The notes beneath the pieces were generated by a model. The model did no database searches. It worked only from the letters and a program-made list of their open reading frames with translations, and was not told the origin of the DNA. From a bacterium (GTDB lineage Bacteria; JAUVQV01; DATDCY01), in contig DATDCY010000012.1 in assembly GCA_036524115.1 (NCBI GenBank), forward strand, positions 22,396 to 86,395: a stretch of 64,000 bases of DNA, given 5' to 3'. Positions 23,862 to 41,753 of this stretch are shown in pieces. Each line of letters begins with the position of its first letter. Within the stretch, counting starts at the first letter, position 1. The translations under genes and the position numbers were made by a program.

Positions 23862-25253
<1,392 letters not shown>

Positions 25254-25395: not shown

Positions 25396-25411
25396 TGGCA
25401 CAACTCATGCA
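25396..25411 (+). promoter_or_regulatory. Sigma-54 (RpoN) -24/-12 promoter
   Basis: TGGCACaactcaTGCA compared with consensus TGGCACG-N4-TTGCA. The GG and GC dinucleotides are exactly 10 bp apart and the -24 hexamer is perfect. It lies 80 nt upstream of ATG 25491 and just downstream of the sigma-54 activator gene. Confidence 0.55.
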
Positions 25412-25490
25412 AACATGATTCAGGCAGAGAGCGATGATGACGAAAATGGGACGGTTGGTCTTCGGCGAGCACAGCGAAAGGAGATTGGTT

Positions 25491-27505: not shown

Positions 27506-27595
27506 CGCAGCCTGAGGATGCCCGATTCTCCGAGGCAAGGCCAGCAGGCCGCCCGTCTCCAGCGGTGCGCGAGACCCGGAACCGTTGGCGTAACC

Positions 27596-27624
27596 TTGAC
27601 TTCCCTTACGCAATTGTCTATTTT
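27596..27624 (+). promoter_or_regulatory. Candidate sigma-70-type promoter for the XrtA-locus operon (TTGACT-N17-TATTTT)
   Basis: The -35 TTGACT (5/6), a 17-bp spacer and the -10 TATTTT (4/6) lie in the 290-bp AT-richer divergent intergenic region, about 170 nt upstream of the deacetylase start. This is pattern matching only. Confidence 0.25.
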
Positions 27625-27797
27625 GTTTGCGGTTTTGCTTCGGACAGACAGCCATTATTGGGTACCGGGCGGCCGAGGCTCTTGAGCGTCGGCCTGCGGC
27701 GGTAGCCCGTCTCGGTTTTCCTTGATCGACTCTGGGCTTACCTTTCAGAACCTCAGCCAGACTCTGATCCGCGCGCTCAGGACAGGAGTCACGCCCT

Positions 27798-28631
27798 ATG
27801 ATCAACGCACTCAGTGTCGACGTCGAAGACTACTTCCACGTCAGTGCGTTCGAACACAATGTCAATCGATCCGACTGGGATAGGTATCCGCTCCGCGTGG
27901 AGAAGAACACCGAGGTTCTTCTCGACCTCTTCGACAGCCACCAGGTGCGGGCTTCGTTCTTTGTGCTCGGTTGGGTCGCGGAACGGGTGCCGGGCCTGGT
28001 CAAACGCATTCAGGGCAGGGGGCACGAGATTGCCTGCCACGGATTCGGCCACGAGCGGCTGGACGTCATTGGCCCCCATCGCTTCCGGGAGGATCTGCGC
28101 CGCGCCAAGCACGTCCTCGAGGATCAGTGCGGGGCACCCGTCCTTGGCTATCGGGCGCCGAGCTTCTCGATCACGCCCAAGTCGGTCTGGGCCGTCGACA
28201 TCTTGATCGAAGAGGGCTTTGTCTACGACTCGAGCATCTTCCCCATCCACCACGATGTCTACGGGATGCCTGGGGCCGACCCGGGCATTCACAGTATCAG
28301 GCGGGAAGCCGGCATTCTGCGGGAATTCCCGCCGACGACGGTGCCCCTTCTTGGCGGGAAGGTCCGCCTGCCCGCAGCCGGAGGCGGGTACCTGCGGTTG
28401 TTCCCCCTTTGGGTGACGCGTCTCGCCATCGACCGCGTCAACGAAGGAGGGCGGCCCGCGGTGCTGTACATGCATCCCTGGGAGTTCGATCCCGAGCAGC
28501 CGCGGATCAAGGCGCGCATGAAGTCGCGGTTCCGTCACTACTGCAATTTGCGCACCACCATCCACAAGATGAGATCATTGCTCGGTTCCTATGCCTTCGC
28601 CCCGCTGAGACAGGTCCTCGGGTTGAGCTGA
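27798..28631 (+). CDS. Polysaccharide deacetylase (NodB/CE4 fold), PEP-CTERM/XrtA-locus type
   Basis: MINALSVDVEDYFHVSAF...RASFFVLGWVAER...GHEIACHGFGHERLD are the NodB-homology motifs DxD, and H..H. It is the first gene of the long plus-strand operon. Confidence 0.8.
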   Translation: MINALSVDVEDYFHVSAFEHNVNRSDWDRYPLRVEKNTEVLLDLFDSHQVRASFFVLGWVAERVPGLVKRIQGRGHEIACHGFGHERLDVIGPHRFREDLRRAKHVLEDQCGAPVLGYRAPSFSITPKSVWAVDILIEEGFVYDSSIFPIHHDVYGMPGADPGIHSIRREAGILREFPPTTVPLLGGKVRLPAAGGGYLRLFPLWVTRLAIDRVNEGGRPAVLYMHPWEFDPEQPRIKARMKSRFRHYCNLRTTIHKMRSLLGSYAFAPLRQVLGLS

Positions 28632-28639: not shown

Positions 28640-30619
28640 ATGTGCGGCATCGCGGGTGTCCTGAACGGCGTTTCGAGAGAGCCGGTGCGCCGTGAACAGC
28701 TCCAACACATGATCGGCGTGTTGCGTCACCGGGGGCCGGATGGTTTCGGGTTCTTCCAGGGGGAGGGCGTCGGCCTGGCGCACGCACGCCTGAGCATCAT
28801 CGACCTCGAGGGAGGCTGGCAGCCGATCCACAACGAGGACAAGAGGGTCTGGATCGTCTTCAACGGTGAGATCTTCAACTACCTCGAGCTGCGGGAAGCC
28901 CTGGTGAAACTCGGGCACGTCTTTTACACGCGCTCGGACACGGAGGTGATCGTCCACCTCTACGAGGAGTACGGCATCGATTGCGTGCAGCACCTCAACG
29001 GCCAGTTTGCGTTTGCGGTCTGGGACAAGGGGCGGGAGCGACTCTTTCTCGCTCGCGACAGGGTCGGCATCCGGCCGCTCTTCTACACGCGCGTCGGAGG
29101 CTCCCTTCTTTTCGCCTCCGAGGTCAAGTCCCTCTTCACGGATCCGCGCGTCAGCCGGACGATCGAGCCGCGCGCGCTCGACCAGGTCTTCACGTTCTGG
29201 ATGACGGTGCCGCCGCAGACGGCCTTCGCCGGCGTCCAGGAGCTGCCGGCCGGCCACGTCATGGTGGTCGAGAAGGACGTCGAGACGACGGCGTGCTACT
29301 GGGACCCGGACTTCCGCCAGGAACAGCCCCCTCGCCGCGAGGCCGAGTACGCCGAGGAGTTGCGGGCGCTGCTCCTCGATGCGACCCGGCTCCAGCTCCG
29401 GGCGGACGTGCCCGTGGGCGCCTACCTCAGCGGCGGGCTCGATTCCTCCGTGATCGCCACGCTCGTGCGGAGGTTCAGCGACACGCCCGTGCGCACGTTC
29501 TCGGTGAACTTCAGCGATGAAGCCTTCGACGAGCGGGGATACCAGCAGGAGGTCGTCGACCACCTCGGCACGGATCACAGCAGCATCACCTGCACCGGGC
29601 GGGACATCGGCGCAGCGTTTCCCGACGTCATCTGGCACGCGGAAAAGCCCATCCTCAGGACAGCGCCGACGCCGCTCATGCTCCTCTCGCGGCTGGTGCG
29701 CGAGAGCGGCTACAAGGTGGTGCTCACCGGCGAAGGTTCCGACGAGATTCTGGCCGGCTACGACATCTTCAAGGAAGCAAAGATCCGTCGTTTCCTGGCA
29801 AGGGCGCCCGAGTCGACGTTCCGCCCCCTGATCCTCAAGCGCCTGTACCCCTACCTGGAAAAGTCGCCGGTGCGCTCCGTGCGCTACGGGGAGGCCTTCT
29901 TCAATGCCGACGTCTCGGGCTACCCGGAGGCCTTCTACGCGCACGTGCCCCGCTGGAACACCACGCGGAAGACCAAGGTCTTCTTCTCCGACCCGCTGAA
30001 GTCCGCGCTCCACGGCTACGACAACCTCCAGGCCCTTGCGCCCCTCCTGCACGAGAGATTGCCGCAGTACGATTACCTCTCCCAGGCTCAGTACCTGGAG
30101 ATCAAGACGCTCCTCTCGGGATACCTGCTCTGCTCCCAGGGGGATCGGATGGCGATGGCGAACTCCGTGGAGGGCCGGTTCCCGTTCCTGGACCACCGGG
30201 TCATGGAGTTCTGTTTCGCCCTGCCGCCTGGCCTGCGCATGCGGGCCCTCACGGAAAAGTACCTCCTGAAGAAGAGCGTGCGCGACCTGCTTCCGCAATC
30301 GATCACGCGCCGCACGAAGCAACCCTACATGGCGCCGGACGCCCAGAGCTTCTTCCACGCGCAGCCGCTGGACTACGTGGACGATCTCCTTTCCGAGAAC
30401 CGCCTGCGGCGGGCCGGGTACTTCAATCCAACGGCGGTCGCGATGCTGGCCAAGAAGTGCCGGCAGAGCCAGGTGCTTGGGTTCAAGGACAACATGGCGC
30501 TCGTGGGAATTCTCTCGACGATGCTCCTGCACGATCAATTCGTCGAGAACTTCGCCCCGCGCATCAGCCGGATGCAGGGGAATCTCAGGGAGGAGACCCG
30601 GTATGCCGTTGAGGTGTAG
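28640..30619 (+). CDS. Asparagine synthetase (glutamine-hydrolysing) family amidotransferase, exosortase-A-system associated type
   Basis: MCGIAGVLNG (Met-Cys N-terminal nucleophile of class II GATase), RLSIIDL, YLSGGLDSS (PP-loop SGGxDS) and C-terminal AsnB-like regions. ATG 28640 was checked in frame. The track ORF 27971.. is read-through across the deacetylase gene. Confidence 0.85.
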   Translation: MCGIAGVLNGVSREPVRREQLQHMIGVLRHRGPDGFGFFQGEGVGLAHARLSIIDLEGGWQPIHNEDKRVWIVFNGEIFNYLELREALVKLGHVFYTRSDTEVIVHLYEEYGIDCVQHLNGQFAFAVWDKGRERLFLARDRVGIRPLFYTRVGGSLLFASEVKSLFTDPRVSRTIEPRALDQVFTFWMTVPPQTAFAGVQELPAGHVMVVEKDVETTACYWDPDFRQEQPPRREAEYAEELRALLLDATRLQLRADVPVGAYLSGGLDSSVIATLVRRFSDTPVRTFSVNFSDEAFDERGYQQEVVDHLGTDHSSITCTGRDIGAAFPDVIWHAEKPILRTAPTPLMLLSRLVRESGYKVVLTGEGSDEILAGYDIFKEAKIRRFLARAPESTFRPLILKRLYPYLEKSPVRSVRYGEAFFNADVSGYPEAFYAHVPRWNTTRKTKVFFSDPLKSALHGYDNLQALAPLLHERLPQYDYLSQAQYLEIKTLLSGYLLCSQGDRMAMANSVEGRFPFLDHRVMEFCFALPPGLRMRALTEKYLLKKSVRDLLPQSITRRTKQPYMAPDAQSFFHAQPLDYVDDLLSENRLRRAGYFNPTAVAMLAKKCRQSQVLGFKDNMALVGILSTMLLHDQFVENFAPRISRMQGNLREETRYAVEV

Positions 30620-30657
30620 GCGCAGGTCCGGCATCGAGCTTCGTCGGGAGAGCGGGC

Positions 30658-31512
30658 ATGTATGACCATCTGTGCGAGATCTACGCCCGCTTCAAGGCAG
30701 CGGGGGTTGCGGAGCCCTTCAGGGAGGCCGTGCACCTGCTGGACCTTCTGGGCGACGGTTCCCTCCGGAGGATCGACGCGACGGCGGCCGACGGGATGAG
30801 CGAATGCCTGGCCGCAATCGAGCAGAGAGGCAAGGGGACCGTGCCCCTGGAGTACCTCGTCGGCAGGGCGGTGTTCATGGGAAACGTGTTCCACTGCACG
30901 CCGGACACCCTCATTCCGACCGAGGACACCGATCTGCTTGTCCGGGTGGTCAGCGAACACGCCCGGGGCGCGACGGCACCCGGCAGGCGCCCGACGATCA
31001 TCGAGATCGGCACCGGCAGCGGGAACATCGCGATCACTCTGGCGCTGGGGCTGGAAGGCGCGAGGATCCTGGCTTCCGACATCAGCGCCGGCGCGGTCGA
31101 GGTGGCGCGGCGCAACGTGGCGAAGCATGGGGTCCAGGACCGCGTCAGCCTGTTCTGCGGAGACATGTTTGCCCCTTTCGCCGATCTGGATTGCCGGGGC
31201 GCAGTCGATGTGGTGGTCAGCAATCCCCCCTACATTCCCACATCGTCGCTTGCCAGGCTTTCTTCCGAGATCGTGGATCACGAGCCGCTCGTTGCGCTGG
31301 ACGGCGGACCCTACGGCATCGACATCTACCGGAAGCTGATCGCCGGTGCCCGGGAATTCCTGTCGCCGCAGGGCGTGCTCGTGTTCGAGATCGGGGAGCG
31401 GCAGGAGAAGCTGGTGGAGCGATTGCTCAAGAAGACCGGGGGCTACGGGGACATCGCCTGCCACGAGCGGCAGGGCAGCGTCCGCGTGATGAGCGCCCGG
31501 AAGAAAACCTAG
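30658..31512 (+). CDS. HemK/PrmC-like SAM-dependent methyltransferase (NPPY motif; N5-glutamine / N6-adenine class)
   Basis: IIEIGTGSGNIAITLA (SAM motif I), VVSNPPYIP (the (D/N)PPY catalytic motif) and EPLVALDGG. GGGAGA lies 8 nt upstream of ATG 30658. Confidence 0.6.
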   Translation: MYDHLCEIYARFKAAGVAEPFREAVHLLDLLGDGSLRRIDATAADGMSECLAAIEQRGKGTVPLEYLVGRAVFMGNVFHCTPDTLIPTEDTDLLVRVVSEHARGATAPGRRPTIIEIGTGSGNIAITLALGLEGARILASDISAGAVEVARRNVAKHGVQDRVSLFCGDMFAPFADLDCRGAVDVVVSNPPYIPTSSLARLSSEIVDHEPLVALDGGPYGIDIYRKLIAGAREFLSPQGVLVFEIGERQEKLVERLLKKTGGYGDIACHERQGSVRVMSARKKT

Positions 31513-31522
31513 GAGATCGCAC

Positions 31523-31771
31523 ATGCCCGTCAAGGAGGCGCTTCGCACGTTCATCCTCGAGAACTTTCTGTTCGGCCAGGAGAATCCGGACTTCACGGAC
31601 GGCGCGTCGCTGCTCGAGAACGGCCTGATCGACTCGACGGGCGTACTGGAGCTCGTGGCCTTCGTCGAGGAGAAGTACGGCATCTCGGTGGCCGACGAGG
31701 AGCTGCTCCCCGAGAACTTCGACTCCGTCGACAACCTCGCCAACTACGTCGGCAGGAAGAGTGCGGCCTGA
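31523..31771 (+). CDS. Acyl carrier protein
   Basis: 82 aa. GLIDSTGVLELVAFVEEKYGI has a DS(T/L) phosphopantetheine-attachment Ser. AGGAGA RBS. Confidence 0.7.
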   Translation: MPVKEALRTFILENFLFGQENPDFTDGASLLENGLIDSTGVLELVAFVEEKYGISVADEELLPENFDSVDNLANYVGRKSAA

Positions 31772-31802
31772 CCGGACCGGGGCGGGCCAGGGAGCAGTCG
31801 GC

Positions 31803-33380
31803 GTGAGACAGACCCTCGTCAACCATTTCCTCGAGCACAGCGCCGGGAAGTTCCCGGAGAAGGTCGCGCTGCTCTGTCATGGGCAGCGGCTCACGTACGC
31901 GGAGCTGAACGGCAGGGCGGATGCCCTTGCCGCGGCGCTGGCGGGGGCCGGCGTCGTCCGCGGCGACAGGGTCGCGGTGTTCATGGACAACTCCGTCGAG
32001 GCCGTGGTGTCCATCTTCGCCACGATGAAAGCCGGGGCGGCCTTCATGGTCGTCAACCCCACGACGAAGGCCGAGAAGCTCGAGTACATCCTGAACAACA
32101 GCCGGGCGCGTGTCCTCGTCACGCAGACGCCGCGGCGGGCCGTCGCCAGCCGCGTTTCCAGCCCGCACCTCGAGACGGTCATCCTCGCGGGGAAGGCCGG
32201 CGCGGACGTGGCCGCCTTTGCCGGGGCGAGACTCCTTTCCTTCGAGGATGCAGTGGCCGCAGCTCCGGCGGGTGGCCTCGTGTCGCCCTGCATCGATCTC
32301 GACCTCGCCGGCGTCATCTACACCTCGGGTTCGACGGGGAACCCGAAGGGGGTGATGCTCTCGCACCTGAACATGGTCTCGGCGGCGGATTCCATCACGA
32401 CCTATCTCGAGAACACACCCGACGACGTCATCGTCAACGTGCTGCCGCTGGCCTTCGACTACGGCCTCTACCAGGTGCTCATGGCCTTCAAGATCGGCGG
32501 CACGGTCGTGCTGGAGAGGTCCTTCACGTACCCGTACGAGATCATCGAGCTCATGATCCGGGAGAAGGTCACGGGCTTCCCGGGAGTTCCCACCATCTTT
32601 GCCATCCTTCTCGGACTGAAGGACCTGCCGAAGTGGGACCTCAGCTCTCTGCGCTACATGACCAACACCGCGGCCGCGCTGCCCGCGAGTCACATCAGGC
32701 GGCTGCGGGAACTGTTCCCGGCCGTGCGGCTCTACTCGATGTACGGTCTCACCGAGTGCAAGCGGGTGTCGTATCTGCCGCCCGCGGAGCTGGACCGCCG
32801 GCCGCACTCCGTTGGCCGGGGAATGCCGAACGAGGAGGTGTACATCGTCGACGAGCAGGGAAACCGCGTCGGGCCCGGCGTGGTCGGCGAACTGGTCGTC
32901 AGGGGCGCCAACGTCATGCTCGGCTACTGGGAGCTGCCCGAGGAGACGGCGGCCTGCATCCGGCCGGGCAAGTACCCCGGGGAGCGCGTCCTGTACACCG
33001 GCGATCTCTTCAAGACCGACGAGGAGGGTTTCCTCTACTTCGTCGCGCGGAAGGACGACATCATCAAGAGCCGCGGCGAGAAGGTGAGCCCCAAGGAGGT
33101 CGAGAACGCGCTGTACGGGCTCGATGGGGTCCTCGAGGCGGCCGTCATCGGTGTCCCGGACGACATCCTCGGCGAGGCGGTCAAGGCGTTCGTCGTCCCC
33201 GAGGCCGGTGCCGCGCTGACCGAGAGGGACGTCCTCAAGCACTGCGCCGCGCATCTCGAGAACTTCATGGTTCCAAAGGCGGTCGAGATCATGAAGTCGC
33301 TGCCGAAGACCTCGACCGGCAAGATCAGCAAGAAGGAACTCAAATCAGGAGACTTCGCCCGCCATGAAAATCTGCACTAA
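31803..33380 (+). CDS. Acyl-CoA ligase / acyl-ACP synthetase (AMP-forming), exosortase-A-associated type
   Basis: IYTSGSTGNPKGV (AMP-binding P-loop), YGLTE, YTGDL...DDIIKSRGEKVSP...KTSTGKISKKEL. GTG 31803 has AGGGAG 8 nt upstream. The track start GTG 31761 lies inside the ACP gene. Confidence 0.8.
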   Translation: MRQTLVNHFLEHSAGKFPEKVALLCHGQRLTYAELNGRADALAAALAGAGVVRGDRVAVFMDNSVEAVVSIFATMKAGAAFMVVNPTTKAEKLEYILNNSRARVLVTQTPRRAVASRVSSPHLETVILAGKAGADVAAFAGARLLSFEDAVAAAPAGGLVSPCIDLDLAGVIYTSGSTGNPKGVMLSHLNMVSAADSITTYLENTPDDVIVNVLPLAFDYGLYQVLMAFKIGGTVVLERSFTYPYEIIELMIREKVTGFPGVPTIFAILLGLKDLPKWDLSSLRYMTNTAAALPASHIRRLRELFPAVRLYSMYGLTECKRVSYLPPAELDRRPHSVGRGMPNEEVYIVDEQGNRVGPGVVGELVVRGANVMLGYWELPEETAACIRPGKYPGERVLYTGDLFKTDEEGFLYFVARKDDIIKSRGEKVSPKEVENALYGLDGVLEAAVIGVPDDILGEAVKAFVVPEAGAALTERDVLKHCAAHLENFMVPKAVEIMKSLPKTSTGKISKKELKSGDFARHENLH

Positions 33381-34380
33381 CTGTATCCTCCCCGAGACGT
33401 TCCCCGGCATCCGGTTCGACGAGCAGGGGGTCTGCACGCACTGCCAGCAGTTCGTCGGGCGGTCCGGCAAGCTCGGCGAGGACAAGGCGAAGTACGCGCT
33501 CAAGTTCGCGCAGCTGCTGGAGCAGCTCGGCCGGGACGGCAGGCGCGAGCGGCGCACCCACGACGTCCTCATGGCCTTCAGCGGCGGCAAGGACTCGACA
33601 TACACGCTGGCGCTCCTCAAGGAGAAGTACGGTCTGCGCATCCTCGCGGTCAGCTACGACAACGGCTTCATCGCGCCGCGGGCCGTGGAGAATATCAGGA
33701 ACGTCACCGAGCGGCTCGGCGTCGACCACGTCCTCTTTAAGCCGCGGTGGGACCTGCTGCGCACGATCTTCGCGGCCGCGGCAGAGGAGGAGCTCTACTC
33801 GAAGAAGACGCTCGAGCGCGCGAGCACGATCTGCACCTCGTGCATCGGGCTGGTGAAGACCGCGTGCCTGAAGATGGCGATCGAGCAGGACATCCCGATG
33901 ATCGGCTTCGGCTGGTCCCCGGGGCAGGCGCCCGTGCAGTCGTCGATCATGCAGACGAACCCGGCGCTGCTGCGGATGACCCAGCAGGCGATCGTCGGAC
34001 CGCTGAAGCGGGTGGCGGGGGAGGACGTCGGCGCCTACTTCCTGAGCGAGAAGCACTTCGCGGCGCCGGAGAAGTTCCCGTGGAACGTGCACCCGCTGGC
34101 CTGGGAGGAGTACGACGAGGGCAAGATCTTCGCGGCGATCGGCAAGCTCGGCTGGCAGGCGCCGCGGGACACCGACAGCAACTCGACGAACTGCCTCCTG
34201 AATGCCTTCGCCAACGACATCCACCTGCGGCGGTACGGCTTCCACCCCTACATCTGGGAGATCGCCAACATGGTGCGCGAGGGGGTCATCCCGCGGGCCG
34301 AGGGGCTGCGCAAGTTCGAGGAGCCGGTGCCGCCGGAGTGGATCCGCGCCGCCAGGGAGAAGCTCGGGCTGCCGGCCTGA
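33364..34380 (+). CDS. N-acetyl-sugar amidotransferase (PP-loop ATP pyrophosphatase; WbuX/WbpG/PseA-like)
   Basis: An N-terminal Cys cluster C..C...C..C (CTNCILPETF...CTHCQQF) followed by a PP-loop MAFSGGKDST. This architecture is typical of the acetamidino-sugar amidotransferases found in O-antigen and pseudaminic-acid loci. Confidence 0.55.
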   Translation: MKICTNCILPETFPGIRFDEQGVCTHCQQFVGRSGKLGEDKAKYALKFAQLLEQLGRDGRRERRTHDVLMAFSGGKDSTYTLALLKEKYGLRILAVSYDNGFIAPRAVENIRNVTERLGVDHVLFKPRWDLLRTIFAAAAEEELYSKKTLERASTICTSCIGLVKTACLKMAIEQDIPMIGFGWSPGQAPVQSSIMQTNPALLRMTQQAIVGPLKRVAGEDVGAYFLSEKHFAAPEKFPWNVHPLAWEEYDEGKIFAAIGKLGWQAPRDTDSNSTNCLLNAFANDIHLRRYGFHPYIWEIANMVREGVIPRAEGLRKFEEPVPPEWIRAAREKLGLPA

Positions 34381-34407
34381 GCCGCGCGGCCAAGGCCCGA
34401 GGTTGCC

Positions 34408-35439
34408 GTGGAGGTCCGCGCCGCGGTCGCCGACGACGCAGAGCGATGGGACTGCTATGTCGACGGGAGCCCCGCGGCGGCGGCCTACCACCGGTTCGGC
34501 TGGAAGGGCGTCGTCGAAAGGAGCTTCGGCCACAGGACGCACTACCTCCTCGCCGAAAGTGGGGGCGGCGTGGCGGGAGTGCTCCCGCTGGTTCGGCTCA
34601 AGAGCAGGCTCTTCGGCAACTTCCTGGTGTCGATGCCGTTCGTCACCTACGGTGGCGTCTGCGCCGACGACCAGGAGGCGAGGGTCGCACTGCTCCGGGA
34701 GGCTGTGAACATCGCCCGGCGGGAGAACGCCTCTCACATCGAGCTGCGGCACAGGGAACCGCTCGACCTCGGGCTGCCGGCCAAGACTGCAAAAGTGTCG
34801 ATGCACCTCGGGCTCCCCGACAGCGCCGACCACCTGCTGAAGTCTTTCGACGCGAAACTCAGGAGCCAGATCCGCAGGCCGGCAAAGGACGGGATGACGG
34901 TCCGCTCCGGCCGCGCCGACGAGTTGGACGCCTTCTACGACGTATTTGCGGCCAACATGCGCGACCTGGGAACCCCGGTCTATGCGAAGGACTTCTTCAG
35001 GAACATCCTCGAGGAGTTCCCCGACAGCACCTGGATCCGTACGGTCTACACCAGGGACGGGGAGCCGGCGGCGTCGGGCTTTCTTCTCGGCTTCAAGGAC
35101 ACCCTGGAGATACCCTGGGCCTCCTCCGTGCGGCGGTTCAACAGGAGCAGCCCGAACACCCTTCTCTACTGGAGCGTCCTGGCGTTCGCCTGCGAGCAGG
35201 GGTATGCAACGTTCGATTTCGGGCGCTCGACGCCGGGCGAGGGCACGTACCGTTTCAAGGAGCAATGGGGCGCCCGTCCCGTTCAGCTCTATTGGCATTA
35301 CTGGCTCGACGGCGGCGGGGCGCTGCCCGAGATCAATCCGAGGAACCCGAAGTACCGGGCCGCCATTGCCTGTTGGAAGCGGCTCCCCGTGGGCCTCACC
35401 ACGCTGCTGGGGCCGAGGATCGTGAAGAACTTGCCGTGA
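34408..35439 (+). CDS. FemAB-related acyltransferase, PEP-CTERM-system associated (GNAT fold; N-acyl amino acid synthase-like)
   Basis: AERWDCYVDGSPAAAAYHRFGWKGVVERSFGH...LPLVRLKSRLFGNFLVSMPFVTYGG... has a FemAB/BioF2-like layout and no other catalytic signature. GTG start. Confidence 0.65.
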   Translation: MEVRAAVADDAERWDCYVDGSPAAAAYHRFGWKGVVERSFGHRTHYLLAESGGGVAGVLPLVRLKSRLFGNFLVSMPFVTYGGVCADDQEARVALLREAVNIARRENASHIELRHREPLDLGLPAKTAKVSMHLGLPDSADHLLKSFDAKLRSQIRRPAKDGMTVRSGRADELDAFYDVFAANMRDLGTPVYAKDFFRNILEEFPDSTWIRTVYTRDGEPAASGFLLGFKDTLEIPWASSVRRFNRSSPNTLLYWSVLAFACEQGYATFDFGRSTPGEGTYRFKEQWGARPVQLYWHYWLDGGGALPEINPRNPKYRAAIACWKRLPVGLTTLLGPRIVKNLP

Positions 35440-35446
35440 GGTGGAC

Positions 35447-35695
35447 ATGAGCGACGCCGTGCAGACACAGGTGGTGGACGTGGTCGTGGGCACCGTCGGG
35501 AGCGGGCTGAAGCGCGAGACGGTCACGCCCGAGACGAAGTTGGTCGGCAACGTGCTCGACTCCATGGCGGTCATGAACCTGATCATGTCCCTCGAAGATC
35601 ATTTCGGATTTTCGTTCCGGGACGAAGAACTCTCCGCCGAGGCGTTCGAGACCGTCGCGACGTTGACAGCGCTCGTCAGGAGCAAGCTGGCCTAG
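35447..35695 (+). CDS. Acyl carrier protein (second copy)
   Basis: NVLDSMAVMNLIMSLEDHFGFSF has a DSM Ser attachment site. AGGTGG lies just upstream. GTG 35441 is an alternative start. Confidence 0.65.
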   Translation: MSDAVQTQVVDVVVGTVGSGLKRETVTPETKLVGNVLDSMAVMNLIMSLEDHFGFSFRDEELSAEAFETVATLTALVRSKLA

Positions 35696-35700
35696 CCGGC

Positions 35701-36528
35701 ATGGGCGAGAGTCTGGAAAAGATCTTCTTCTTTCGGGGGAGCGAGCGCCGCCGGCTGCTCGGCGTTCTCTACCGGCCGCCCGGCGGCCAGTCCCGGGCCA
35801 CGGGCATCGTGTACTGCCACCCGTTCGCCGAGGAACAGAACATGGCCCACGCCGTGGCGGTGAAGGCGTGCCGGTCGTTCAGCGAGCAGGGCTTCCCCGT
35901 GCTGCGGTTCGACATGAGCGGCTCCGGCGACAGCGAGGGGACGCTCGAGGACGTGACGGTCTCCTCTTGGATGGAGGACCTCCAGGCGGCGGTCAAGGTT
36001 CTCAAGGCCGAGGCGAACGTCGACCGGGTCGCGCTGTGGGGGCTCAGGCTCGGCGGCGGCCTGGCCCGGCTGCACGCGTGCGACGATGACTCCGTGCACT
36101 CGCTGATCTTGTGGGAGCCGGTGCTCGATCTCTCCCTCCACATCAGGCAGTTCCTGCGCAGGAGCACGGTTTCGAGAATCATGGCAAACGATGCCGGGGG
36201 GAGCGCTCCCGTTCCGACCGACGGTCAGTTCGCCAAGGGGCATACGATGTCGGTCATCGGCTACCCGGTCGCGCCGGCATTGTTCGACAGCTTCTGTGCC
36301 GTCGGGCAACAGCCCCTGCGCTGTCCGACCGACCGGCCGACCCTGGTCCTTTCAATCTCGTTGTTCGACAAACCGAGCGCGACGATGGCGGGGATGATGG
36401 GCGTCCTCGGTTCAGGCGCCGCCGTCCGGTGCGATCACATCGAGGCGGAACCGTTCTGGGACCGCTATTTCCGCTGGGAGTGCCCCGCGCCGATTCAGCA
36501 CTCCCTGCAGTGGCTCGGGGAACGGTAG
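35701..36528 (+). CDS. Alpha/beta-fold hydrolase, exosortase-A-system associated (type 2)
   Basis: GIVYCHPFAEEQNMAHA...VLRFDMSGSGDSEG...LWGLRLGGGLA (GxSxG-like nucleophile elbow). Confidence 0.6.
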   Translation: MGESLEKIFFFRGSERRRLLGVLYRPPGGQSRATGIVYCHPFAEEQNMAHAVAVKACRSFSEQGFPVLRFDMSGSGDSEGTLEDVTVSSWMEDLQAAVKVLKAEANVDRVALWGLRLGGGLARLHACDDDSVHSLILWEPVLDLSLHIRQFLRRSTVSRIMANDAGGSAPVPTDGQFAKGHTMSVIGYPVAPALFDSFCAVGQQPLRCPTDRPTLVLSISLFDKPSATMAGMMGVLGSGAAVRCDHIEAEPFWDRYFRWECPAPIQHSLQWLGER

Positions 36529-36536
36529 CGCAGGAG

Positions 36537-37406
36537 ATGGAGCAGCCGGTTCAGTTCTCGGCCAACGGCAGGCAGTTGTTCGGCATCCTTCACATCCCCG
36601 ACGGACCCGCCTCCCCGGTCGACACGGTCGTCATGGTGACCGGGGGACCGCAGACGAGGTACGGCAGCCACAGGTTGTACGTGCTCCTCGCGAGGTACCT
36701 CTGCGAACGCGGCGTGGCGGTCCTGCGATTCGACTACGAGGGCATGGGGGACAGCGAGGGGGAATTCGTTGGGGCCGCCGGCGCGGCCGGTTCGATCGAG
36801 GCGGCCCTTGCCTACATCGACTCGGCGGTCGTCAACCGCGGCCGGAAGATCGTCTGGTCGCTGTGCGACGGCGCCTCCGCAAGCGCGCACTTCGTTGCTG
36901 TGCGCCCCCGGGCGGCGGATGGGGCGGTTCTCTGCAACCCCTATATCCAGAAGGAACTCGTTCAGTATCGCCGGCATTACTACAAGCGGAGATTGCTGCA
37001 GAGGGACTTCTGGCGCGACCTGCTGAGAGTCAGGGTGAACGTCGCGGGTGCCTTGTTGGAGGTGTTGACCATTCTTCGCACGGGTGTGTCTCAGCGCATC
37101 CGCAAACTGCTTGCCGCAAGGAGCTGGACGAACGAGCCCTTCTCCCTGGATTCGCTGCTCCTGAGCCTGCAGAACATCGAGGTTCCGACGTGGTGCGTGC
37201 TCAGCGCGCACGATGACGTGGCCCAGGAGTTTCTCGAAGGGATCTCGTCCGGATTCGGGAAGACGGTGGTCGAAAAGAACCCGAACATACGCATCACCAC
37301 GATTGCGGCGGCCGATCACACGTTCAGTCTGCCCGGAAACAGCGCTGCCCTGAACGCCGCCACCGTTGCGGCGCTTCAGGCGATGGGATGTCGAACCCTC
37401 TCGTGA
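36537..37406 (+). CDS. Alpha/beta-fold hydrolase, exosortase-A-system associated (type 1)
   Basis: VVMVTGGPQTRYGSHRLYVLLARYL...VLRFDYEGMGDSEGE...VWSLCDGASASAHF. ATG 36537 lies 8 nt after the upstream stop. The track ORF 36111.. is read-through. Confidence 0.6.
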   Translation: MEQPVQFSANGRQLFGILHIPDGPASPVDTVVMVTGGPQTRYGSHRLYVLLARYLCERGVAVLRFDYEGMGDSEGEFVGAAGAAGSIEAALAYIDSAVVNRGRKIVWSLCDGASASAHFVAVRPRAADGAVLCNPYIQKELVQYRRHYYKRRLLQRDFWRDLLRVRVNVAGALLEVLTILRTGVSQRIRKLLAARSWTNEPFSLDSLLLSLQNIEVPTWCVLSAHDDVAQEFLEGISSGFGKTVVEKNPNIRITTIAAADHTFSLPGNSAALNAATVAALQAMGCRTLS

Positions 37407-37428
37407 ACGGCCGGGCCGCTGTGAAGAG

Positions 37429-39054
37429 ATGGCGAACCACCGAGGCTTCCGGATGCCGGTGATCAGGGTCGTCGGCGATCTGGCGATACACGCCGGCGAG
37501 GCGTGCCCGGACAAGGCCGCAGCGTTCATGCGCGACGACAGCATCACCTACGCGGACGTCCTCGAGCGCAGCCTCAGGCTCGGCGACTTCCTCAGTCGGA
37601 CGGGCGTCGCGAAGGGCGACAGGGTGTGCTTGTTCCTCGAGAAGCGCTTCGAGAAGGTGATCGCCATCTTCGGGACTGCCCTTGCCGGCGCAGTGGTCGT
37701 CCCGATCAGGCGTCTTTCCAGACCCGCACAGGTGCTGCACGTTCTCGGGGACTCCGGGGCGAAGGTGCTCATCACGACCGCTGCCGGCGTCGCGAGTCTC
37801 GGGAACCTGCCCGATGGCGCCACCGGCCTCGAGACCGTCGTCAGCATCGGCAAGGTCCCGGATGCCGGGCTTCCCGCCAGGCTCCGGCTCGTCGAATGGG
37901 ACGACGTCATGCGAAACGCAGCGTGCCCGGGACCGCGGGCGCGCGTGACCGACCGGGACCTTGCCGCGATCCTGTACACGTCCGGCTCGACCGGCAAGCC
38001 GAAGGGTGTCGTGCTCAGCCACTTGAACGTCATTGCGGGGACCCAGAAGGTCTCGGAGTATCTGGGGATCAACCCGGACGACCGCCTGCTGAGCATTCTG
38101 TCGTTCGGGTTCGACTACGGGTTGAACCAACTGACCACGGCCTTCTTCAACCGGGCGCAGATCGTCTTGCTCGACCATCTCTTTCCGCAGGACATCCTGA
38201 ATGCGGTCGCGAAGCACCGAGTGACGGGACTGGCGGCGGTGGCGGCGACCTGGATCCAGCTGGTGCAGGCGTCTTGGGAGTCGACCGCGATGCCCCGGCT
38301 GCGATACGTCACGAATTCCGGCGGCGCGATACCGCCCCGGATTGTCCAGGAGATCCGGAGGCGCCTCCCGCGGACCAAGATGTTCCTGATGTACGGCCTC
38401 ACGGAGGCCTTCCGCTCGACGTATCTCGATCCGGACCTCGTCGACCAATACCCGGGCTCCATCGGCAAGGCGATCCCGGGGGAGGAAGTGATGGTCCTCG
38501 ACGCGAGCGGCGAGCCTGTCGGACCCAACGAGGTCGGCGAACTGGTCCACCGGGGTGTCCTCGTGGCGCAGGGCTACTGGAATGACCCGGAGCTGACAGG
38601 CCGCAGGTTTCGCGACAACCCGCGGCAACCCGGCGAGGTGCCGCTGCGCGAAAAGGTGGTGTACTCCGGGGACCGGGTCAGAGTCGATGAACAGGGATAT
38701 TTGTATTTCGTCGGCAGGGACGACGACATGATCAAGTGCGCGGGCAACAGGATCAGCCCGACGGAAGTGGAAGACGTCCTCTACCGGTGTCACGGCGTCG
38801 CCGAGGCCGTGGCCTTCGGCATTCCGCACGAAACGTACGGCCAGACCGTCTATGCGGTGATCGCCCTGACCGGCGAAGGCACCGTCGCGATCGCCGACGT
38901 GCTGAAGCACTGCAGGGAGCAGCTGCCGCCCTACATGGTGCCGAGCGGGATCGAGGTCCGACAGAGCCTTGCAAGAAACGACAACGGCAAGATCGACCGG
39001 TCCGGGATCCAAAGAGAAGTCCGATCACGCGCCGCGACCGTGGGAGCCCGATGA
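37429..39054 (+). CDS. Acyl-CoA ligase / acyl-ACP synthetase (AMP-forming), second copy
   Basis: LYTSGSTGKPKGV, MYGLTEAF, YSGDRVRVDEQGYLYFVGRDDDMIKCAGNRISP and KIDRSGI. Start ATG 37429 (MANHRGF). Alternatives are GTG 37366 and ATG 37453. Confidence 0.8.
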   Translation: MANHRGFRMPVIRVVGDLAIHAGEACPDKAAAFMRDDSITYADVLERSLRLGDFLSRTGVAKGDRVCLFLEKRFEKVIAIFGTALAGAVVVPIRRLSRPAQVLHVLGDSGAKVLITTAAGVASLGNLPDGATGLETVVSIGKVPDAGLPARLRLVEWDDVMRNAACPGPRARVTDRDLAAILYTSGSTGKPKGVVLSHLNVIAGTQKVSEYLGINPDDRLLSILSFGFDYGLNQLTTAFFNRAQIVLLDHLFPQDILNAVAKHRVTGLAAVAATWIQLVQASWESTAMPRLRYVTNSGGAIPPRIVQEIRRRLPRTKMFLMYGLTEAFRSTYLDPDLVDQYPGSIGKAIPGEEVMVLDASGEPVGPNEVGELVHRGVLVAQGYWNDPELTGRRFRDNPRQPGEVPLREKVVYSGDRVRVDEQGYLYFVGRDDDMIKCAGNRISPTEVEDVLYRCHGVAEAVAFGIPHETYGQTVYAVIALTGEGTVAIADVLKHCREQLPPYMVPSGIEVRQSLARNDNGKIDRSGIQREVRSRAATVGAR

Positions 39055-40283
39055 TCGGCAACAGTGCTCTCCAGTCGGCGCTGGCCCACCACGGGCGGAA
39101 GGGGCGGACGCTCCTGATCGGCGGCCTGCCGGCGGAGGAGATCGCCGCCAGGTACGGCACCCCGGTCTACGTGTACAGCCGCGAGGCCATGGTCGCCCGG
39201 CGGAACAGCCTCCGGGAGGCGCTGCCCGGGGACGTTCGCATTCTCTACGCGGTGAAGGCAAACCCCCACCCGGAGCTGCTCAGCCTGATGGGGGAGCTGT
39301 ACGACGGCTTCGACGTGTCTTCGCTTGGCGAGATCCGGAAGGCGCTTGACGCGGGCGTGTCGGCCGCGCGGCTGAGCTTTGCGGGTCCCGGGAAGCTCAG
39401 GGAGGAACTCGATTTCGCCGTCGGCGCGGGTGTCGGGAGCATCAGCGTCGAAAGCCGCGATGAGATCGAGGCGGTACGGGACATCTGCCGGTGCCAGGGC
39501 AGGATGGCCAACATCATGGTCCGCGTCAATCCCATCTTCAGCCTGGCGCAGTCGGGGATGGGCATGGGCGGGCCACGCCAGTTCGGGATAGACGCCGATC
39601 AGGTTCCGCCCGTGCTCGATGACATTCGGGGCGACCGCCACCTGAACTTTCAGGGCATCCACGTCTTCTCCGGATCGCAGAACCTCAGCGCGGCCGTCCT
39701 CGCCGAACACTTCGCCAATATCGTCCGCTATGCCCTCGATATCTGCGCGGAGAAGGGCATGCCGCTCGCTGCGGTCAATGCCGGCGGAGGCTTCGGCATT
39801 CCCTACTTCGCGGGCGACACCGACCTCGACCTCGGCGCGGTCGGGACGGCTATCGGAGCCACGATCGCCGAGGAGAAGGCGCGGTTGGGGAAGACGACGA
39901 TCACCCTGGAACTGGGCAGGTATCTCGTCGGGGAATGCGGCGTCTATCTCTGCCGGGTGCTCTACCGCAAGGTGTCGCAAGGCACGGTGTTCCTTGTCCT
40001 CGATGGCGGCATGCACCACCACCTCGCCGCGTCGGGCAACCTGGGCCAGGGCCTCCGGCGGCGGCCGATGCCCGTCGTGACCGCGAACGACCTGGATGGC
40101 GCGGGGGAGAAAGTGACGCTCGTCGGCCCGCTCTGCACCCCATTGGATACCTTCGGGACCGTGGAGATCCCGCGCGCGGACGTCGGGGACCTGGTGGCCG
40201 TGATGAATTCCGGCGCGTACGGGCTGTCGGCCAGCCCGGTCAACTTCCTGAGCCGCAGGCCTCCTGTGGAGGCGCTCGTCTGA
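39051..40283 (+). CDS. PLP-dependent decarboxylase (fold III; DapDC/ornithine-decarboxylase-like), exosortase-A-associated type
   Basis: PVYVYSREAM...ILYAVKANPHPELL (PLP-Lys region AVKAN), GFDVSSLGE, VFSGSQ and CTPLD. ATG 39051 overlaps the ligase stop as ATGA. Confidence 0.8.
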   Translation: MIGNSALQSALAHHGRKGRTLLIGGLPAEEIAARYGTPVYVYSREAMVARRNSLREALPGDVRILYAVKANPHPELLSLMGELYDGFDVSSLGEIRKALDAGVSAARLSFAGPGKLREELDFAVGAGVGSISVESRDEIEAVRDICRCQGRMANIMVRVNPIFSLAQSGMGMGGPRQFGIDADQVPPVLDDIRGDRHLNFQGIHVFSGSQNLSAAVLAEHFANIVRYALDICAEKGMPLAAVNAGGGFGIPYFAGDTDLDLGAVGTAIGATIAEEKARLGKTTITLELGRYLVGECGVYLCRVLYRKVSQGTVFLVLDGGMHHHLAASGNLGQGLRRRPMPVVTANDLDGAGEKVTLVGPLCTPLDTFGTVEIPRADVGDLVAVMNSGAYGLSASPVNFLSRRPPVEALV

Positions 40284-41713
40284 TGATCTCCACGAGGACC
40301 GTGACCGATCCGGCAGAGATCGAGCGCTGGGTCCCGGCTTGTTCGGAGCTGGCGAGGACTACCCAAGCCTCCCTGTGTTCTCAGTACCTGGATGTCCCGC
40401 TGCTCTGGTGGAAGAGTTTCGCGAACGGAAGCGGGCAGGACACCTACACGGTTCGGGGCGCCAACTTCCTCGGGACGCGCAGTTGGCTCGAAGACATGTT
40501 CGTGATACTGGCGTTCGCGGGCGACGAGCTCCTCGGAGCGCTGCCGCTCGCCTCGCAGTCGGTGAAGGTGCGCGGCCGTGCCGTGCCGCGGCGCGTCGTC
40601 ACGCTTCCGGGAGACTTCCAGTTGATCCCCTACATGGACCTGACGGTCGCCGCGGGCAGGCGGCGGGAGGTCATAGGGGCGCTCCTCGACACCGCGATCG
40701 ACGGGCTGGGCGACGACGACCTGCTGATGCTGCAGTACCTCCCTGAAACGTCCCCGCACCTCGAGGAGATTGCCGCTCACTTGCGCGCGAAGGCGCCCGC
40801 CGGGGTTCGCTACACCGTTGCGACGACGGGGCGCAGGGGCGGCGTCTGGCCATGGAACCTGGAAATCATCGTTTCCTGCCTGAGGCAGCTGCGCGCCAGG
40901 GTGACAACGGCCGACCTCCGCGGGCATTTGGACGGGCTGCTCGAGGCGCTCGGCTCATGCCCCAGCACGTCGCTGATCCTCCCCCAGACAAGGAGGACCT
41001 TCGAAGAGAAGATTCGTGACGCCCTGGATTGCGTCAGCGCGGACGTCGGTCCGGGCGACGCGACGAGGGTTCTCCAATCTCACCTTGCGGATGCGCCGGA
41101 TTACTACGGGCGCATCTCCTTGCCGAAGGACGAGGACACGTACCGGGCGTCGCTCGGCAAGGATACACGACGGTATTTCCAGCGCTATGGCCAGGCATTC
41201 CGCGAAGCCGGGGGCTCCTTCGAGAAGATCGCGTCCGAGCGCGTGACCGAGCGTGACGTCGACGACTACCTGGCCCTGCACGACAGCCGCTGGCGCGGCG
41301 ACTCCGCCGTCTTGAAGAACGAGCGCTTGTATCGATTCCATCGCGATCTGTGCGCCCGGCTTGCAGCCAAAGGATTTCTCTCGCTCTTCTTCGCCGTGTA
41401 TCGCGGCGCGAGGATTGCCGTTCACTCCTGCATCGACATCTGCGGGCGGCGCGAGGGCTACATGATCGGCAGGGACCCGGGCTTCGAGGAAACGAGGGCC
41501 GGCCGCCTGCTGTATTTTGAGACGATTCGGGACGCCATCGCCAGCGGGTATCGCACCTACGAGATGGGGCGGGTCTGGTTTGCCTACAAGGCGAGTTTCA
41601 CCAGGGAGAGCGCCTTGACCAGGAACGTCTTCGTTTCGAAAGCGGGAACCGCACCCGATCTCAACGGGATATTTGGCGGCTACGAATGCATGCTGGCGGT
41701 GAGCGAGGCGTGA
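40283..41713 (+). CDS. FemAB/GNAT-like acyltransferase (Acetyltransf_6-like), second copy; candidate N-acyl amino acid synthase
   Basis: 476 aa. Its C-terminal half GFLSLFFAVYRGARIAVHSCIDICGRREGYMIGRDPGFEETRAGRLLYFETIRDAIASGYRTYEMG resembles the FemAB/BcsL-type GNAT. ATG 40283 sits in a TGATGA overlap with the decarboxylase stop. Confidence 0.5.
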   Translation: MISTRTVTDPAEIERWVPACSELARTTQASLCSQYLDVPLLWWKSFANGSGQDTYTVRGANFLGTRSWLEDMFVILAFAGDELLGALPLASQSVKVRGRAVPRRVVTLPGDFQLIPYMDLTVAAGRRREVIGALLDTAIDGLGDDDLLMLQYLPETSPHLEEIAAHLRAKAPAGVRYTVATTGRRGGVWPWNLEIIVSCLRQLRARVTTADLRGHLDGLLEALGSCPSTSLILPQTRRTFEEKIRDALDCVSADVGPGDATRVLQSHLADAPDYYGRISLPKDEDTYRASLGKDTRRYFQRYGQAFREAGGSFEKIASERVTERDVDDYLALHDSRWRGDSAVLKNERLYRFHRDLCARLAAKGFLSLFFAVYRGARIAVHSCIDICGRREGYMIGRDPGFEETRAGRLLYFETIRDAIASGYRTYEMGRVWFAYKASFTRESALTRNVFVSKAGTAPDLNGIFGGYECMLAVSEA

Positions 41714-41753
41714 CGCATTCCATGTGCCGAAGGGTATGCGCACGAGGAAGGTC

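Follow-up and report, generated by a model that had tools for sequence, protein, structure and literature searches.

Gene organisation of the locus

The stretch of DNA analysed here (hereafter the window) comprises 64,000 nucleotides of contig DATDCY010000012.1 from the bacterial assembly GCA_036524115.1. It holds an exosortase-linked gene module centred on carrier proteins, which a preliminary description of the sequence had pointed out without establishing its product, an outline that our analysis upholds. Between positions 28640 and 41713, the 13 open reading frames (ORFs) of this module are all present on the plus strand, in frame and without internal stops, at the coordinates where they had first been placed (Table 1). 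They include genes for two acyl carrier proteins (ACP1 and ACP2), two adenylating ligases (Lig1 and Lig2), two FemAB/GNAT proteins (Fem1 and Fem2), two alpha/beta-fold proteins described as hydrolases (Hyd1 and Hyd2), a pyridoxal phosphate (PLP)-dependent decarboxylase, an AsnB-type and a PP-loop amidotransferase and a HemK-like methyltransferase. Judged by gene order and sequence relatedness, the two ACP/ligase pairs belong to two separately conserved cassettes, modules A and B, and their carriers most likely bear aspartate- or glutamate-type amino acids, not fatty acids.

The 13 frames are supported by a third-codon-position G+C content of 0.76-0.97, in a stretch of 65% G+C. Intergenic distances along the run are, in order, 38, 10, 31, -17, 27, 7, 5, 8, 22, -4 and -1 nt, the overlaps falling between the genes of Lig1 and the PP-loop protein (17 nt), between those of Lig2 and the decarboxylase (4 nt, ATGA at 39051, exactly as described before) and between those of the decarboxylase and Fem2 (40283). 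The last overlap had been counted among the 4-nt junctions and measures 1 nt; the start of Fem2 at 40283 is backed by an alignment with seven homologues. The run is also wider than first delimited, since the deacetylase gene ends 8 nt before 28640 and the genes of a GT2 glycosyltransferase and the exosortase follow directly 3' of 41713, up to 44281. Inside it, the number of terminator-like sites equals the expectation from shuffled sequence and a promoter scan gave no excess over that expectation. The 13 genes are the middle of a single predicted operon, from 27798 to about 44281, in an XrtW-type PEP-CTERM/exopolysaccharide (EPS) locus.

Protein families were assigned with NCBIfam/TIGRFAM profiles and their curated cut-offs, and with Pfam. 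Most of the families that had been expected were found and the assignments hold at superfamily level, but several score below the curated cut-off; the motifs named before are all in place, as the AsnB-type enzyme begins with Met-Cys, the methyltransferase contains NPPY and each ACP has Asp-Ser. The class of the sorting enzyme has to be changed, and with it the label of the module as XrtA-linked: the exosortase passes the XrtW model (NF038142, 479.5 bits, cut-off 425), misses that of XrtA (TIGR03109, 193 bits, cut-off 208) and scores 75 bits with EpsI.

Table 1. Features of the exosortase W-type locus, with positions in the window and the family or residue evidence for each.
Feature	Position	Strand	Evidence
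PrsT TPR lipoprotein, PEP-CTERM system regulator	21489-23810	+	TIGR02917 387.5 bits (cut-off 312)
PrsR sigma-54 response regulator, PEP-CTERM system regulator	23862-25253	+	TIGR02915 617.3 bits (cut-off 503)
PEP-CTERM protein, presumed exosortase substrate	25434-25979	+	TIGR02595 at residues 156-180, 27.3 bits (cut-off 16)
Polysaccharide deacetylase, VimE-like step, first gene of the run	27798-28631	+	TIGR03006 378.3 bits (cut-off 276)
AsnB-type glutamine amidotransferase, Cys2 nucleophile	28640-30619	+	TIGR01536 passed; GATase_7 and Asn_synthase (Pfam)
HemK/PrmC-like N-methyltransferase, module A	30658-31512	+	NPPY at residues 189-192; TIGR03534 200.2 bits (cut-off 199.1)
Carrier protein ACP1, module A	31523-31771	+	PF00550; Ser38 at 31634-31636
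Lig1 adenylating ligase, module A	31803-33380	+	VinN-type pocket: D219, Y220, T-N-T, K320-R321, K507
PP-loop ATP pyrophosphatase, module A	33364-34380	+	N-terminal Cys4 motif; TIGR03573 151.5 bits (below 203.2)
Fem1, FemAB-family, VimA-like aminoacyl transferase	34408-35439	+	TIGR03019 397.6 bits (cut-off 260.35)
Carrier protein ACP2, module B	35447-35695	+	PF00550 27.3 bits; Ser39 at 35561-35563
Hyd2 alpha/beta-fold protein	35701-36528	+	Arg116 at nucleophile position; TIGR03101 133 bits (below 202.75)
Hyd1 alpha/beta-fold enzyme	36537-37406	+	Cys110-Asp226-His261; TIGR03100 199.9 bits (cut-off 168.45)
Lig2 adenylating ligase, module B	37429-39054	+	D229, Y230, T-N-S, F-R329, K521; TIGR03098 631.2 bits (cut-off 592.35)
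Fold-III PLP decarboxylase, BtrK-like, Lys69	39051-40283	+	TIGR03099 473.1 bits (cut-off 478.45)
Fem2, 476-aa tandem-GNAT protein	40283-41713	+	Acetyltransf_6 (PF13480, 64 bits) at residues 294-436
GT2 glycosyltransferase	41724-42776	+	Partial matches to several GT2 families
Exosortase W with fused EpsI domain	42773-44281	+	Start GTG 42773 or 42800; NF038142 479.5 bits (cut-off 425)

Conservation of the two cassettes

Module A consists of the genes for the AsnB-type enzyme, the HemK-like methyltransferase, ACP1, Lig1 and the PP-loop amidotransferase, and module B of those for ACP2, Hyd2, Hyd1, Lig2, the decarboxylase and the long Acetyltransf_6 protein Fem2. The doubled genes had been read as a duplication, but Lig1 and Lig2 are 37% identical, ACP1 and ACP2 38% over 47 residues, and Fem1 and Fem2 give a marginal match (23% over 78 residues), while each copy has its own conserved context in other genomes; a recent tandem duplication of the ACP, ligase and Fem genes is ruled out by these identities and contexts.

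With the decarboxylase as query, 60 genome loci were gathered from phyla that include Acidobacteriota, Nitrospirota, Cyanobacteria, Planctomycetota and Proteobacteria, the closest relatives (46-53% identity) being encoded in Fibrobacterota genomes. In 47 of these loci the decarboxylase gene adjoins that of a ligase, and 32 have an ACP no more than 5 kb away; genes of AsnB, a deacetylase, a glycosyltransferase, PrsR/PrsT or an exosortase are found in many of them, and the methyltransferase and the PP-loop gene of module A are in none of the 60. Module B is syntenic in a contig from Logan (L001) and largely so in the Fibrobacterota genomes (L006-L008), where two AsnB genes lie directly 5' of the ACP or hydrolase 2 gene; the equivalent of ACP2 holds the same position in L001, L006 and L007, and L009 likewise counts among the loci with module B gene order. 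In L001, three tandem paralogues of the long Acetyltransf_6 gene follow the decarboxylase (5637-10010), where the window has one. The exosortase found with module B is XrtA or XrtW, and a Massilia locus (L013) with only the ligase and decarboxylase has XrtA.

For module A, a metagenome scan with the PP-loop protein gave only 12 loci, mostly short, and its context was taken from six long PP-loop loci (L068-L070 and L083-L085) obtained by contig look-ups. In all six the PP-loop gene stands 3' of a ligase gene, directly or with only a methyltransferase gene between them. L083 begins inside the ligase; in the other five contexts, which reach further upstream, the ligase comes after a small ACP-like gene and an AsnB gene, as in the window. 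The HemK-like methyltransferase is present in three (L068, L069 and L070), and L068 repeats the window order of deacetylase, AsnB, methyltransferase, ACP, ligase, PP-loop and FemAB-like genes. Wherever the exosortase beside module A is visible it is XrtW (4/4 loci, 506-647 bits). Two observations from these contigs may be added. In L068, the closest syntenic locus, a gene for an Sfp-type phosphopantetheinyl transferase (10171-10956, minus strand) comes right after module A. L083 (1-3833), on a contig binned as Candidatus Methanoperedens, encodes a ligase, a PP-loop protein 66-67% identical to that of the window and an XrtW-class exosortase (506 bits); its place in an archaeal metagenome-assembled genome could reflect misbinning or inter-domain transfer.

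Enzyme relationships and the proposed product

TIGR03098 ligases are described as adjoining a TIGR03099 decarboxylase. Lig2 passes the TIGR03098 cut-off and its gene indeed overlaps that of the decarboxylase, whereas Lig1 (512 bits) does not pass and is followed instead by the PP-loop protein. In an alignment of 44 related ligases, most of them taken from beside such decarboxylases, the F-D of the A4 motif (GrsA 234-235), with the Asp to which the amino group of the substrate binds, is present in 43 and gapped in one; T299-N300, M322 and R330 are invariant, and K517 is found in 42. When the A4-A5 fragment of Lig1 was compared with all solved chains, VinN scored 69 bits and the only other match was a 4-coumarate ligase with 41. 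The two proteins share the stretches F-D219-Y-G-L-Y (W-D230-F231-G-L-Y in VinN) and T-N-T-A-A-A-L-P (T-N-S299-A-A-A-L-P), and T-E-C-K-R is identical in both (K320-R321 in Lig1, K330 and R331 in VinN). In VinN, D230 binds the amino group, F231 and S299 shape the pocket and K330/R331 of the beta13-beta14 loop are key for substrate recognition, so that 3-methylaspartate or aspartate is recognised as a beta-amino acid and activated at its side-chain carboxyl (PMC11253843). Lig1 carries this residue set (D230, F231, S299, K330-R331) as D219, Y220, T and K320-R321, and each of the six long PP-loop loci has a ligase with the motif YGLTECKR. Lig2 has the set in part, as D, Y, S and F-R; since F-R replaces K-R in ligases of its type, a related but different acidic amino acid is expected for them. 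Glycine activation, considered on account of full-length LgrA scores, was dropped because that chain has two A domains, which together add up to the high score.

The carriers themselves are competent by their motifs, Asp-Ser being conserved in 41 of 41 related ACPs and the modifiable serine being Ser38 in ACP1 and Ser39 in ACP2. The best solved relative of the decarboxylase is BtrK, the L-glutamyl-[BtrI acyl-carrier-protein] decarboxylase (276 bits, 39% identity over 379 residues), while all diaminopimelate decarboxylases score 151 bits or less; TIGR03099 is the best family by far, lysA reaching only 244 bits (cut-off 298). A fold-III PLP enzyme nearer to BtrK than to diaminopimelate or ornithine decarboxylases is thus encoded together with an ACP and a loading enzyme, and we presume it to be an aminoacyl-ACP decarboxylase. 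In the pathways of BtrJ, CtaD and FlvN, Glu or Asp is loaded via its side-chain carboxyl on the ACP (BtrI, CtaE or FlvL), and BtrK, CtaF or FlvO decarboxylates the carrier-bound amino acid to gamma-aminobutyrate (GABA) or beta-alanine (PMC11350588). The BtrK-like decarboxylase and the VinN-like ligase pockets therefore point to acidic amino acids on the carriers, and the fatty-acyl chemistry of the preliminary description is not supported.

The same holds for the two "thioesterase-like hydrolases", neither of which has a serine nucleophile. In the family of Hyd1, sampled as 150 representatives clustered at 50% identity, the nucleophile-elbow motif (G/S)-L-C-D-(G/A) has its Cys in 150 of 151 sequences, and an Asp (L-S-x-x-D) and a His (D-H-T-F) are kept in 145 and 147. 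By these motifs Hyd1 is a Cys-Asp-His triad enzyme, not a serine hydrolase, and presumably a thioester acyltransferase. Hyd2, encoded 8 nt upstream, belongs to proteins with G-L-R-x-G at this place (Arg at the nucleophile position in 119 of 120 homologues, no conserved His); JGI gives homologues at 38-58% identity the name exosortase A-associated hydrolase 2, and these have the motif in common. Almost a third of the Hyd1 representatives (48/150; P0258, P0265 and P0268 among them) are fusions of at least 500 residues, the N-terminal half of which matches the Hyd2 profile and carries the Arg, with hydrolase 1 and its Cys-Asp-His at the C-terminus. Hyd1 and Hyd2 are perhaps one two-part enzyme, in which Hyd2 would be a non-nucleophilic partner and might serve as a binding subunit. 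Solved relatives of both proteins are only generic esterases, mostly over the N-terminal half (for Hyd1 over no more than 115 N-terminal residues), and therefore give no functional lead.

Exosortase-linked N-acyl amino acid synthases resemble FeeM, which is the structurally characterised enzyme of this kind. Fem1 and Fem2 had been proposed as such synthases, but PF13444, TIGR03694 and FeeM gave no match for either of them in Pfam, NCBIfam, PDB sequences or the Foldseek top 50, and a FeeM-like gene was not found among the ORFs covered by our general scan of the window (about 50). Their only family matches are PF13480/PF02388 and TIGR03019, the last for Fem1, which passes it, and not for Fem2. 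FemX and FmhB are the only solved sequence relatives of Fem1. Fem2 matches PF13480 only in its C-terminal third and found no match in a sequence search against solved structures; its model (pLDDT 77.8) has FemX (TM 0.43 on query), MprF, Sbb17, Sba18 and VipF as Foldseek neighbours, of which MprF stands for aminoacyl-phosphatidylglycerol synthases and Sbb17 and Sba18 are aminoacyl-tRNA-dependent peptide synthases. The synthase claim fails because both proteins group with Fem transferases, which had been set beforehand as the ground for giving it up. As far as sequence relationships tell, they resemble FemX/VimA-type aminoacyl transferases, not FeeM-type enzymes. Since the eight homologues of Fem2 that were found are always encoded 3' of a decarboxylase where context is visible, this protein... 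is presumed to be the transferase of module B.

A precedent for Fem1 is VimA of Porphyromonas and Tannerella, which matches TIGR03019 and decides which amino acid, Ser or Gly, goes onto a sugar amine that the deacetylase VimE has freed (PMC7468200). The AsnB-like protein WbpS, a match to TIGR03108, makes a uronamide, and the resulting "linking sugar" is the attachment point of cargo proteins by the type IX sortase; Veith et al. proposed that PEP-CTERM loci might work like the Vim/Wbp linking sugar (PMC7468200). The AsnB-type enzyme of the window (TIGR01536, 524 bits) scores 490.4 bits with TIGR03108, the cut-off of which is 816.9; by analogy it would catalyse a WbpS-like step or else amidate a carrier-bound unit. 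The PP-loop protein does not reach the cut-off of TIGR03573 (WbuX/PseA type), and the only close structural match to its model (pLDDT 92.8) is the Legionella N-acetyl sugar amidotransferase 8wex (TM 0.72-0.74, 19-20% identity), so that it has the fold of the WbuX/PseA group and probably also its ATP-dependent amidation chemistry. It has more than 3000 homologues, the 120 listed being 61-80% identical and all but a few of these without a Pfam record, and it is a separate, very conserved family distant from the N-acetyl sugar amidotransferases. The methyltransferase passes the PrmC model (TIGR03534) by 1 bit and its counterparts at the same position in L068, L069 and L070 score 201-208 bits; it is a conserved EPS-locus paralogue straddling the PrmC cut-off, which annotation pipelines will therefore name PrmC.

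Putting these relationships together, we propose that the operon equips an amino sugar with a substituent of the beta-alanyl/GABA type or with an aspartyl amide, by way of amino-acid-loaded carriers, a reading that we hold to be moderately probable. Gene content, family relations and the conservation of residues and cassettes are observed in this scheme; substrates, the order of steps and the acceptor are what we infer. By the VimE/VimA/WbpS analogy, the deacetylase, Fem1 and the AsnB-type enzyme would free an amine of an N-acetyl sugar, attach an aminoacyl group to it and turn a carboxylate into an amide. In module B, Lig2 would adenylate a Glu/Asp-type amino acid and pass its side-chain carboxylate to holo-ACP2, and the BtrK-like decarboxylase would strip the free alpha-carboxylate on the carrier to give GABA- or beta-alanyl-S-ACP2. 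Hyd1 may then take the acyl group from the thioester onto its Cys, with Hyd2 as the Arg-bearing partner, and Hyd1/Hyd2 and/or Fem2 would hand the omega-aminoacyl group to an acceptor, which is most likely a hydroxyl or amine group in the repeat unit of the polysaccharide. In module A, the VinN-like Lig1 would load an aspartate-type amino acid on ACP1, and the unit might be amidated or made into an amidine (by the AsnB-type and/or PP-loop enzyme), N-methylated by the HemK-like enzyme and then transferred; methylation would fit an AsnB-made product because PrmC-like enzymes methylate a carboxamide nitrogen.

Several results weigh against this proposal. Full-length Lig1 scores equally against malonyl-CoA synthetase (240 bits) and VinN, which makes a small dicarboxylate the main alternative substrate of this ligase, although the conserved amino-binding Asp argues against it. 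Lig1, Hyd2, the AsnB-type enzyme and the PP-loop protein are clearly below the cut-offs of TIGR03098, TIGR03101, TIGR03108 and TIGR03573, and the decarboxylase misses TIGR03099 by 5 bits. The nucleophile positions of Hyd1 and Hyd2 were assigned by motif alignment, not from a structure, and at the sensitivity used the hydrolases were detected in only 5 of the 60 decarboxylase loci. A phosphopantetheinyl transferase was not seen among the window ORFs scanned. Finally, the Fem proteins have no solved relative that uses acyl-ACP, all of these working with aminoacyl-tRNA or acyl-CoA, and it is only by gene adjacency that the GNAT proteins are linked to the ACP modules: Fem1 and ACP2 are encoded 7 nt apart, the decarboxylase and Fem2 genes overlap, and in L042, L047 and L052 an Acetyltransf_6 gene stands between ACP and ligase, an arrangement that points to Fem1 and Fem2 being linked with the ACP modules.

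Partly overlapping with the proposed sugar substituent is the idea, rather unlikely but the most novel of the readings, that the cassettes build a group with an amine (omega-aminoacyl or aspartyl-amide) on a lipid or on a sugar, the latter either in the polysaccharide or in its lipid-linked precursor, to which XrtW would join the cleaved C-terminus of PEP-CTERM proteins. PorU with its Ser/Gly linking sugar would be the parallel, module A an XrtW-specific version, and Hyd1/Hyd2 a new heterodimeric, Cys-dependent ACP:acceptor aminoacyl transferase. Both cassettes do lie within exosortase operons in several phyla, module A with XrtW wherever visible and module B with either class, module B is predicted to yield a product with a free primary amine at its end, and the VimA-made aminoacyl sugar anchors cargo of the type IX secretion system, as has been proposed for PEP-CTERM proteins too (PMC7468200). 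However, the literature holds no direct evidence of exosortases as transpeptidases, and an EPS or exosortase marker lies within 10 kb in only 32 of the 60 decarboxylase loci at the sensitivity used.

That about half of the decarboxylase loci are without an EPS marker nearby also suits a free small molecule, such as a beta-amino-acid polyamide, siderophore or signal made in a manner resembling the closthioamide or macrolactam starter-unit pathways, its location in an EPS locus then reflecting co-regulation only. The logic of ligase, ACP and fold-III decarboxylase is indeed that of the butirosin, fluvirucin, vicenistatin and closthioamide pathways. We nevertheless consider such a product improbable, as polyketide synthase (PKS), nonribosomal peptide synthetase condensation and thioamide genes were not found in the window, the genes are set between the deacetylase and the glycosyltransferases and exosortase with gaps of at most 38 nt, and genomes of Fibrobacterota, Nitrospirota and others show them in the same setting.

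Less probable still is the original proposal that acyl-ACP synthetases load fatty acids and that an N-acyl amino acid or amine lipid serves as anchor or decoration. ACPs and AMP-forming ligases are present, the long-chain fatty-acid-CoA ligase model NF004837 is second-best for the ligases (415 and 308 bits, below cut-off), and the best NCBIfam match of ACP1 is an ornithine-lipid ACP, with only 57 bits against a cut-off of 130. These scores are set against the amino-binding Asp in 43 and the pocket Arg in all of the 44 ligases, the VinN-type T-E-C-K-R loop of Lig1, a BtrK-like decarboxylase that needs an amino acid on the carrier, and Fem proteins and a window scan without any trace of PF13444, TIGR03694 or FeeM; as the preliminary description itself had supposed, the ligases are not of the FadD type, all FadD models scoring far below their cut-offs. 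A chance gathering of housekeeping LysA, PrmC, FadD and AsnB genes, finally, has hardly any probability: TIGR01536 and, by its narrow margin, TIGR03534 are passed, but the sub-cut-off lysA and FadD scores, the recurrence of the methyltransferase paralogue, equally borderline in score, in the corresponding place of XrtW loci, and the translational coupling with ACPs and EPS genes led us to reject LysA, PrmC or FadD roles.

Wider neighbourhood and comparison with known systems

Upstream of the operon, the regulators PrsT and PrsR are present, and the sensor kinase PrsK was not found among the window ORFs scanned. A sigma-54-type -24/-12 element (TGGCAC-N5-ATGC, one mismatch) lies at 25396-25410 on the plus strand, 24 nt upstream of the gene for the PEP-CTERM protein and shortly behind that of the sigma-54 activator PrsR, a position that fits RpoN-dependent PEP-CTERM genes described elsewhere; over the whole window the pattern count is not above chance. 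A row of large putative secreted proteins (PKD/fn3, CglD-like, choice-of-anchor D and PPC domain) is encoded upstream of PrsT (13321-21507, minus strand), and an LpxG/YaeI-like metallophosphoesterase (26666-27805, minus strand) between the PEP-CTERM gene and the operon. Between 44000 and 58000 the G+C content falls from 0.65-0.75 to 0.51-0.59, which probably marks an exchanged, variable block. It holds GT4 glycosyltransferases, a MOP flippase (47600), a Wzy-like polymerase/ligase (50435), an FkbM methyltransferase (57461) and three Acyl_transf_3 membrane acyltransferases (49141, 51803 and 58186). Amid the acyltransferases sits a third adenylate-forming enzyme, of the PaaK/F390-synthetase type (53900-55435, plus strand; DVU_1553 family, 135 bits, below cut-off), with no adjoining ACP. 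Two ORFs of coding-like composition, at 55675-57321 (plus strand, 548 residues) and 26083-26664 (minus strand, 193 residues), have no Pfam or NCBIfam match.

Bacteria of the environment and of wastewater widely carry PEP-CTERM/exosortase systems, which underlie floc and biofilm formation, and both the attachment target of exosortases and the product of the accessory ligase, decarboxylase and hydrolase genes are questions that have stood since about 2006. The present reading turns a vague "acyl carrier module" into assayable predictions, namely loading of Asp/Glu-type amino acids, decarboxylation on the carrier (a loss of 44 Da) and Cys-dependent transfer, and it sets apart a second, undescribed cassette tied to XrtW, the PP-loop enzyme of which, with close homologues by the thousand, has no family model. 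If true, it would explain how these polysaccharides gain amino-acid substituents and might identify the anchoring point of PEP-CTERM proteins.

Among characterized pathways, butirosin biosynthesis (BtrI ACP, BtrJ ligase, BtrK and BtrH) likewise has a fold-III PLP enzyme decarboxylating an amino acid on a small ACP, and there the aminoacyl group goes to the amine of an amino sugar via BtrH, an ACP:aminoglycoside acyltransferase. In the window, by contrast, the loader is an adenylating ligase of the ANL family, not ATP-grasp, the candidate transferases are a Cys alpha/beta-fold and a tandem-GNAT protein, not BtrH, genes for hydroxylation or gamma-glutamyl deprotection are missing, and the genes stand in a polysaccharide operon instead of an antibiotic cluster. 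Macrolactam starter-unit machinery, with VinL/FlvL as ACP, VinM as second ligase, VinJ as alpha/beta-fold peptidase and VinO/FlvO as decarboxylase, offers a similar inventory of two ligases, an ACP, a decarboxylase and alpha/beta-fold proteins, and VinN shares its D, aromatic, S/T and K-R residues with Lig1. The window differs in having no PKS, in that the VinN-like Lig1 is not the ligase paired with the decarboxylase and Lig2 has F-R, not K-R, and in that the nucleophile position of its alpha/beta-fold proteins is occupied by Cys or Arg instead of Ser.

The Dlt system also decorates a cell-surface glycopolymer through a ligase (DltA) that adenylates an amino acid and a carrier (DltC), together with the MBOAT protein DltB and with DltD. 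Ligase and small carrier have counterparts in the window and Hyd2 weakly matches a DltD-domain protein (E 1.8e-4); Dlt, however, has no decarboxylase, an MBOAT protein was not found among the window ORFs scanned, and the three downstream Acyl_transf_3 membrane proteins have no link shown to the cassettes. PhaC, in which a Cys-Asp-His triad forms a thioester acyl-enzyme from a thioester substrate, resembles Hyd1 in its Cys at the nucleophile position and its conserved Asp and His, but no sequence match was seen, and Hyd1 pairs or fuses with an Arg-bearing paralogue. The Wbp/Vim linking-sugar pathway has the same trio of families (VimE deacetylase, VimA FemAB-like, WbpS AsnB-like) by a sorting peptidase; unlike the window it lacks ACP, ligase and decarboxylase genes, and its sorter is PorU, not an exosortase, while the AsnB-type enzyme of the window stays below the TIGR03108 cut-off.

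Closest of all is the exosortase A accessory set (TIGR03098-03101 with an ACP; TIGR03006, TIGR03019 and TIGR03108), to which module B, the deacetylase and Fem1 of the window correspond. Since the families of module B have long been catalogued as "exosortase A system-associated", the find is not categorically new. A literature search on the function of the cassette (exosortase with ACP, decarboxylase and ligase; BtrK; the TIGR numbers; XrtW) returned no paper, the main text of Haft 2006 does not mention the accessory genes, and none of the papers found describes module A with its tie to XrtW, interprets the chemistry after BtrK and VinN, or reports that the "hydrolases" bear Cys and Arg and are often fused. 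Compared with the catalogued set, Lig2, Hyd1, Fem1 and the deacetylase of the window pass their cut-offs and the decarboxylase comes within 5 bits, whereas the AsnB-type enzyme, Hyd2 and Lig1 are below theirs, the exosortase is XrtW, and the locus adds a 476-aa Acetyltransf_6 protein and a whole second cassette.

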